In this document: positions 17,303-17,512 of the stretch, in pieces
How the letters are laid out: every line of letters begins with the position of its first letter
Numbering within the stretch: position 1 is the stretch's first letter
Assembly (NCBI RefSeq): GCF_035083965.1
Contig: NC_089740.1
Coordinates: 9,108,596-9,172,595, forward strand
From: Branchiostoma lanceolatum
Lineage: Eukaryota
Direction: 5' to 3'
Length of the DNA stretch: 64,000 bases
Position numbers and translations under genes: made by a program
The notes under the pieces: generated by a model
Databases searched by the model: none
The model's input: the letters and a program-made list of their open reading frames with translations, nothing else
Told to the model about the DNA's origin: nothing

Positions 17303-17512
17303 GGGACATGTTTGGCCTCTACCAGGGTCGAGAGGCGGTTTGGAAAAGTAGAAATTTGCCAAATAGACAGATAACAAGCAAGAGGAGTTAGTCCGCGGCA
17401 AACTGTACTCCTTTAGCGGACTATAAACTCCTCTTGTATGTAACGTTATCTGTCTAGTTTCTACTCTTTCCAGCCGCCTCTGGAGCTTGGTAGAGGCTAG
17501 GACATGTTATTT
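17303..17512. repeat. Long near-perfect palindrome (foldback): arms of about 100 bp around a centre at about 17405 ('agtccgc|ggcaaactgtactcctttagc|ggact').
   Basis: Left arm 'ggacatgtttggcctctaccagggtcgagaggcgg...gataacaagcaagaggagttagtccgc' is the reverse complement of right arm 'gcggactataaactcctcttgtatgtaacgttatc...ccgcctctggagcttggtagaggctaggacatgt', with a few indels. Confidence 0.7.

Follow-up and report, generated by a model that had tools for sequence, protein, structure and literature searches.

The inverted repeat that lies between the divergent PAQR4-like and TEP1-like genes of Branchiostoma lanceolatum is very probably a 187-bp insertion of a small non-autonomous MITE, whose inverted repeats span almost the whole element and thus give it a "foldback-like" shape. 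It occupies positions 17313 to 17499 of the window, by which we mean the whole 64-kb stretch of DNA that was analysed. We identify it as a MITE because the family is represented by two independent insertions, both with empty sites and 9-bp duplications, and because the element is small and non-coding (no ORF of at least 45 aa overlaps 17313-17499). The palindrome is real, it is flanked by a duplication, the orthologous site is empty, and the family was inserted independently at another place, which has empty counterparts of its own. An earlier note on this DNA had proposed, among other things, a foldback transposon remnant. The transposon origin stands, but the element is complete and small rather than a remnant. 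The same note had taken many dispersed copies with target-site duplications as the mark of an ordinary MITE; copies of this kind exist at two non-orthologous sites, each with a duplication and with empty counterparts.

The inverted repeat is far above chance level. Local alignment of the sequence to its own reverse complement scores 118, whereas 200 shuffled sequences score 24 on average and 48 at most. The element runs from TGGCCTCTACCAGG to CTTGGTAGAGGCTA and is palindromic nearly throughout. We call its orientation in the window "plus"; it corresponds to the minus strand of the related copies in B. belcheri and B. japonicum described below. It consists of a left arm (17313-17395), a central loop (17396-17416) and a right arm (17417-17499), the two arms being long terminal inverted repeats of about 83 nt each. 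The left arm aligns to the reverse complement of the right arm with 67 matches, 12 mismatches and 8 gap columns over 87 aligned columns, or 77% identity, so that the earlier description of near-perfect arms of about 100 bp with few mismatches was overstated. Agreement is better at the tips, where the outer 12 nt of the two arms match at 11 positions, and the terminal 14 nt of the right arm recur in the B. belcheri and B. japonicum copies. The centre, which had been thought to be a short inner palindrome, is in fact an asymmetric 21-nt loop, CGGCAAACTGTACTCCTTTAG, which is left unpaired in the minimum-free-energy folds; the innermost part of the stem contains CCGCGG. As for the total extent, the note had placed a 210-bp palindrome at 17303-17512. 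This was right about the inverted repeat, but the span takes in the 9-bp direct repeats on either side of the element proper, and the palindrome appears longer than it is because the 9-bp repeat contains the self-complementary ACATGT. RNA folding, suggested at the time as a check, was carried out and yields a very stable hairpin on both strands (-122 kcal/mol and z = -12 for the plus strand, -102 kcal/mol and z = -11 for the minus strand), with the plus strand of the B. lanceolatum copy folding better by 20 kcal/mol.

The element is flanked by two copies of the 9-mer GGACATGTT, at 17304-17312 on the left and at 17500-17508 on the right, which agree in all nine bases (9/9). The repeat ends there, since the next base differs on both sides (G/A on the left, T/A on the right). 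We also considered an 8-bp, hAT-like duplication and rejected it, since all nine bases repeat and the 8-bp version would give the element unequal ends. Comparison was made with five loci from other lancelets: B. floridae is represented by L002 and by L001, which is its haplotype in a hybrid, B. belcheri by L003 and L005, and B. japonicum by the haplotype L004. In every species, orthologous alignments (BLASTN with window 13000-24000, four loci) halt at window 17306-17312, which is the left edge of the palindrome, and resume at about 18950; the hairpin was not found at the orthologous site in any of L001 to L005. The filled site of B. lanceolatum reads TCTAGGGACATGTT[187 bp]GGACATGTTATTTAAC, and the empty site of B. 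floridae reads TCTAGGGACATGTTGATTAAG. Written out with its junctions, the B. lanceolatum sequence is TCTAGGGACATGTT-[TGGCCTCTACC...GGTAGAGGCTA]-GGACATGTT-ATTTAAC...AAGATACTGT, and the two B. floridae loci L001 and L002 read TCTAGGG(A/G)CATGTT-(A/G)ATTAAG...AAGATACTGT, with a single copy of the 9-mer and without the element. To the right of the duplication, the flank (ATTTAAC...AAGATACTGT) can again be aligned to B. floridae (AATTAAG...AAGATACTGT). The insert contains no sequence that comes from its flanks. About 25 bp from the site of the B. lanceolatum MITE, one haplotype of B. floridae (L002 9847-9885) has a 39-bp mini-palindrome, CAAGGAGGTTAAAGAATCACTCTTTCTTTAACCTCCTTG, with perfect 15-bp inverted ends and flanking CTCAAAG direct repeats, which is absent from L001.

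Related copies of the element are present at a second site, downstream of PAQR4, in B. belcheri (L003 12280-12482, L005 12461-12665) and B. japonicum (L004 12319-12523), as detected by the same BLASTN search. Compared over its full length, the window copy shares about 70% identity with them, and each of them is a palindrome too. The 14-nt termini TAGCCTCTACCAGG...CCTGGTAGAGGCTA are common to the elements of all three species. Among the eight ends of the four copies, which represent two independent insertions, six begin with TAGCC, one end in L005 has CAGCC, and the left end of the window copy has TGGCC. The core of the loop, GCAAA(C/T)TGTACT(C/T)CTTTAGC, also recurs in the B. belcheri and B. 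japonicum copies, and since it is both shared and asymmetric, it fixes the relative orientation of the copies. A family profile recovers the window copy with E = 1e-55 (nhmmer). When the element is removed from the second site, the joined flanks are contiguous with B. floridae and with window 11884-12075, and the empty counterparts in L001, L002 and the window contain a single copy of the target. The second site is flanked by GTAAGGAGC and GCAAGAAGC, a decayed 9-bp duplication that still matches at 7 of 9 positions in L005 and at 4 of 9 in L003. L005 carries an extra insertion of about 47 bp immediately after the right-hand duplication (12666-12725), which is absent from L003 and L004.

The nhmmer family profile found no further family copy in the 64-kb window or in L001 to L005. 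The count stands at two independent insertion sites in about 175 kb of amphioxus DNA, with only one copy in the window, which speaks for dispersal rather than for abundance. A weak nhmmer match (E = 0.013) falls inside PAQR4, at L004 11160-11178 (about 11150-11165 in L003), where an isolated CCTGGTGGAGGCTA resembles the right terminus of the family. Metagenome scans with patterns derived from the element gave no match in the first case and seven in the second, all of them to unrelated sequences that have the pattern alone in common. Four of the stretches that were caught by chance (L006 40-88 and 1160-1208, L010 1344-1392, L012 1037-1085) lie in near-identical sequences of about 120 bp on three metagenome contigs from two samples, and belong to a repeat of some other organism that is unrelated to the MITE. 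A text search of the literature returned no paper containing the terminus TAGCCTCTACCAGG.

The ORF pattern of the window is that of split eukaryotic genes, and the site had correctly been called intergenic. To its left, on the minus strand, is a PAQR4-like gene with three exons (13559-15426), whose best protein match comes from Branchiostoma and whose exons do not differ from B. lanceolatum XP_066271060 in any aligned part. To its right, on the plus strand, is a TEP1-like gene with TROVE, NACHT and WD40 parts, which extends from about 19830. All five comparison loci have this divergent arrangement of PAQR4 and TEP1. Protein searches with the TEP1 WD40 exon return distant WD40 proteins only, and the exon at 19821-20918 (plus strand, about 311 aa) has no match in a search of 5.8 billion proteins. 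At the DNA level, this exon is 78-81% conserved in the other Branchiostoma loci and lies inside the called range of the TEP1 gene, and it seems to represent an N-terminal part of TEP1 that is specific to amphioxus and evolves fast.

Two non-coding blocks in the spacer are conserved. One extends from 16769 to 17312, with 74-81% identity in four Branchiostoma species, especially at 17130-17300. Its minus strand contains, in this order, CCAAT, ACTTCCGG, CCACGCCC and AAAATGGCGG, followed by an invariant AACTCACAAGCCGGCCG stretch and a splice donor (CTAG/GTACGT) at about 17136. Judging by these motifs, it is presumably the TATA-less core promoter and non-coding exon 1 of the PAQR4-like gene, whose transcription would lead away from the element. 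The other block (18949-19191) has an invariant TATCCCATGATGCA, a ACTTCCGG motif and a splice donor on the plus strand (AAGTCG/GTAAG), and is presumably the promoter and first non-coding exon of the TEP1-like gene, which would put the TEP1 start roughly at 19000-19180, about 1.5 kb to the right of the element. By these motifs, transcription would begin at about 17230 on the minus strand for PAQR4 and at about 19030 on the plus strand for TEP1. If these promoter readings are right, the MITE is upstream of both starts, in untranscribed spacer. It would then abut the putative PAQR4 promoter at the outer edge of the conserved block and leave it intact.

What else could explain the palindrome? Long palindromes can arise through template switching, and the presence of only one copy in the 64-kb window might speak for a local inverted duplication, made in place by an error of replication or repair, which would be single-copy, immobile and possibly a fragile site. 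However, the insert is bounded by a 9-bp target duplication of which the empty site has exactly one copy, nothing in it stems from the flanks, and homologs that share its termini and its asymmetric loop occupy a different locus in other species. We consider this origin extremely unlikely. The second possibility raised in the note is a hairpin RNA or source of siRNA. According to this model, the stem of about 85 bp would be transcribed and diced to endo-siRNAs or a miRNA. The very stable fold and the 20 kcal/mol advantage of the plus strand fit the model, and small-RNA loci derived from MITEs are known in plants and animals. However, four other Branchiostoma loci lack the element at the orthologous site. 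Rfam has no matches at gathering thresholds in the whole window, and a search of 17000-18100 with E values up to 10 returned nothing meaningful over the element, only chance-level matches with E of at least 1.6; tRNAs are likewise absent from the window. The strand asymmetry of the fold was rejected as a hint of an RNA gene, because the favored strand differs among the family copies: when these are compared in the same orientation, the better-folding strand is reversed in B. belcheri and B. japonicum, which makes the asymmetry look like noise. Judging by the promoter motifs, the element would also fall outside both transcription units. Covariation between the arms was considered as well. Six pairs have changed on both sides between B. 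lanceolatum and B. belcheri or B. japonicum, compared to 2.3 expected from shuffling and 0 to 2 in slid controls. We do not take this as evidence for RNA structure, but as symmetry at the DNA level of the source elements of each species, drawn from two independent lineages only; such symmetry is expected, because one transposase must recognize both ends. The resemblance to hpRNA loci and MITE-derived miRNA loci is therefore confined to the long stable inverted-repeat fold, whereas conservation of the locus, an Rfam match and a consistent strand bias are lacking, and we regard a hairpin-RNA gene as very unlikely.

It is also conceivable that the MITE has taken on a role in this lineage, as a cis-regulatory element or a boundary for the PAQR4-like promoter, the TEP1-like promoter or both. 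The element is within about 20 bp of the conserved cluster of CCAAT, ACTTCCGG, CCACGCCC and AAAATGGCGG, which looks like a promoter by its motifs. However, conservation breaks off right where the element was inserted, and the orthologues do not need it to function. Moreover, the arms are decaying (77% identity), as expected of unconstrained DNA, and the spacer has gathered other insertions, namely a TA-flanked MITE (17666-17930) and the 39-bp mini-palindrome of one B. floridae haplotype, which suggests a tolerant landing zone rather than a function. We consider co-option highly improbable. There is a similarly small chance that upstream-antisense (divergent) activity of the PAQR4-like promoter transcribes the MITE, so that its hairpin gives rise to small RNAs, or that the MITE serves as a new regulatory or boundary element.

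A MITE insertion is the preferred explanation, and a scenario for its origin can be proposed. A transposase encoded elsewhere in the genome, presumably a DDE transposase acting in trans, would have recognized the TAGCCTCTACCAGG-type ends. The element would have been inserted at a staggered 9-bp cut in GGACATGTT, and gap repair would then have duplicated the 9-mer. Given the empty sites, this would have happened in the lineage to B. lanceolatum, after the split from B. floridae, and the arms would have decayed neutrally from then on. Most likely, the element is a passenger without effect on fitness. Its arms differ by 23%, and yet the target-site duplication is perfect (9/9). If all of the arm divergence had arisen after the insertion, a perfect duplication would be unlikely (about 0.15 by a simple estimate), and the source copy was probably already imperfect before it was inserted.

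The transposase family can be guessed from the duplication. A 9-bp duplication is classic for the Drosophila FB elements and typical of Mutator-like elements, for which the range is 9-11 bp. The duplications at both insertion sites have the length seen in Mutator-like/Foldback elements (9-11 bp) and also in Merlin (8-9 bp), and from this length our guess is Mutator-like/Foldback, with Merlin fitting less well. The window element shares its very long inverted arms and its 9-bp duplication with Foldback (FB) elements and with MITEs derived from Mutator-like elements (MULEs). It differs from Drosophila FB, which has internal tandem subrepeats in the arms, whereas the window element has none. Merlin elements have target-site duplications of 8 or 9 bp and can have inverted repeats of 24-462 bp, and their ends carry a conserved terminal 5'-GG-3' (PMC8101967). 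Our family resembles Merlin in the 9-bp duplication and in the long inverted repeats, but its ends are TAGCC (TGGCC in the window copy), without the terminal GG. Among the other superfamilies, hAT (8 bp) is probably excluded by the perfect 9-bp repeat, and Tc1/mariner (TA), PIF/Harbinger (3 bp) and piggyBac (TTAA) are excluded by the length of the duplication. Tc1/mariner elements of the Stowaway-like type are flanked by a TA duplication, whereas the flanks here are GGACATGTT. Neither an autonomous partner nor a related transposase with the ends of the family was found in the window or in the five comparison loci.

The separate MITE that had been noticed next to the palindrome is real. It spans 17666-17930 (265 bp), with TA at 17664-17665 and 17931-17932, inverted ends of the CTGTAAATGCA type and internal sub-repeats CGCGAAC...AAAACCACCGCGAACA. 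Relatives are found in a TEP1 intron at window 29960-30066 (107 bp, with TA flanks) and in a TEP1 intron of B. floridae (L002 844-1054). Because of its TA duplications, this neighbor is of the Tc1/mariner (Stowaway-like) type. It has the general anatomy of a MITE and the location in the spacer in common with the palindrome, but differs from it in the TA duplications and in the unrelated CTGTAAATGCA ends. Since the palindrome has a 9-bp rather than a TA duplication, it must have been mobilized by a transposase family other than that of its neighbor.

The window contains further inverted repeats. The top self-complement score belongs to a repeat inside the TEP1-like gene with arms of 61 nt (36010-36070 and 36373-36433), which are 100% complementary and separated by 302 nt; a transposon of about 424 bp seems to have been inserted here recently. 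A gapped inverted repeat at about 39300-40200 has a self-complement score of 103 and no ungapped arm of at least 25 nt, and a pair of 28-nt inverted segments at 24716-24743 and 24858-24885 matches at 93%. Both structures are probably additional MITE-like elements in TEP1 introns. Of a different nature is an uninterrupted ORF of 1790 aa on the minus strand (46980-52352), which is of low complexity and rich in Ser, Thr and Lys, and which coincides with a strong AT skew of -0.22 to -0.26.

Insertions of this kind are not exceptional in lancelets. MITEs have been annotated in bulk with MITE-Hunter, make up about 6.7% of amphioxus (Branchiostoma) genomes and have propagated recently (PMC10013865). 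Because MITEs fill several percent of lancelet genomes, we regard the palindrome insertion as ordinary. It is like other amphioxus MITEs in its small size, lack of coding capacity, terminal inverted repeats and target-site duplication, and also in its presence or absence between species, its dispersed homologous copies and its location close to genes. It differs from them in that the inverted repeats span nearly all of the element and not the tips alone.

Together, our data explain what had been a candidate for a structured RNA or a fragile palindrome as routine transposon content of a MITE-rich genome, and in this respect the finding matters little. The clean pair of filled and empty sites dates one insertion to the B. 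lanceolatum lineage, and the 9-bp duplication narrows the choice of transposase families that are candidates for its mobilization. The spacer between PAQR4 and TEP1 tolerates repeated small insertions up to, but not inside, the conserved promoter-like block. Should the MITE give rise to small RNAs after all, or have a regulatory or boundary role, it would represent a recent case of MITE exaptation in a cephalochordate.
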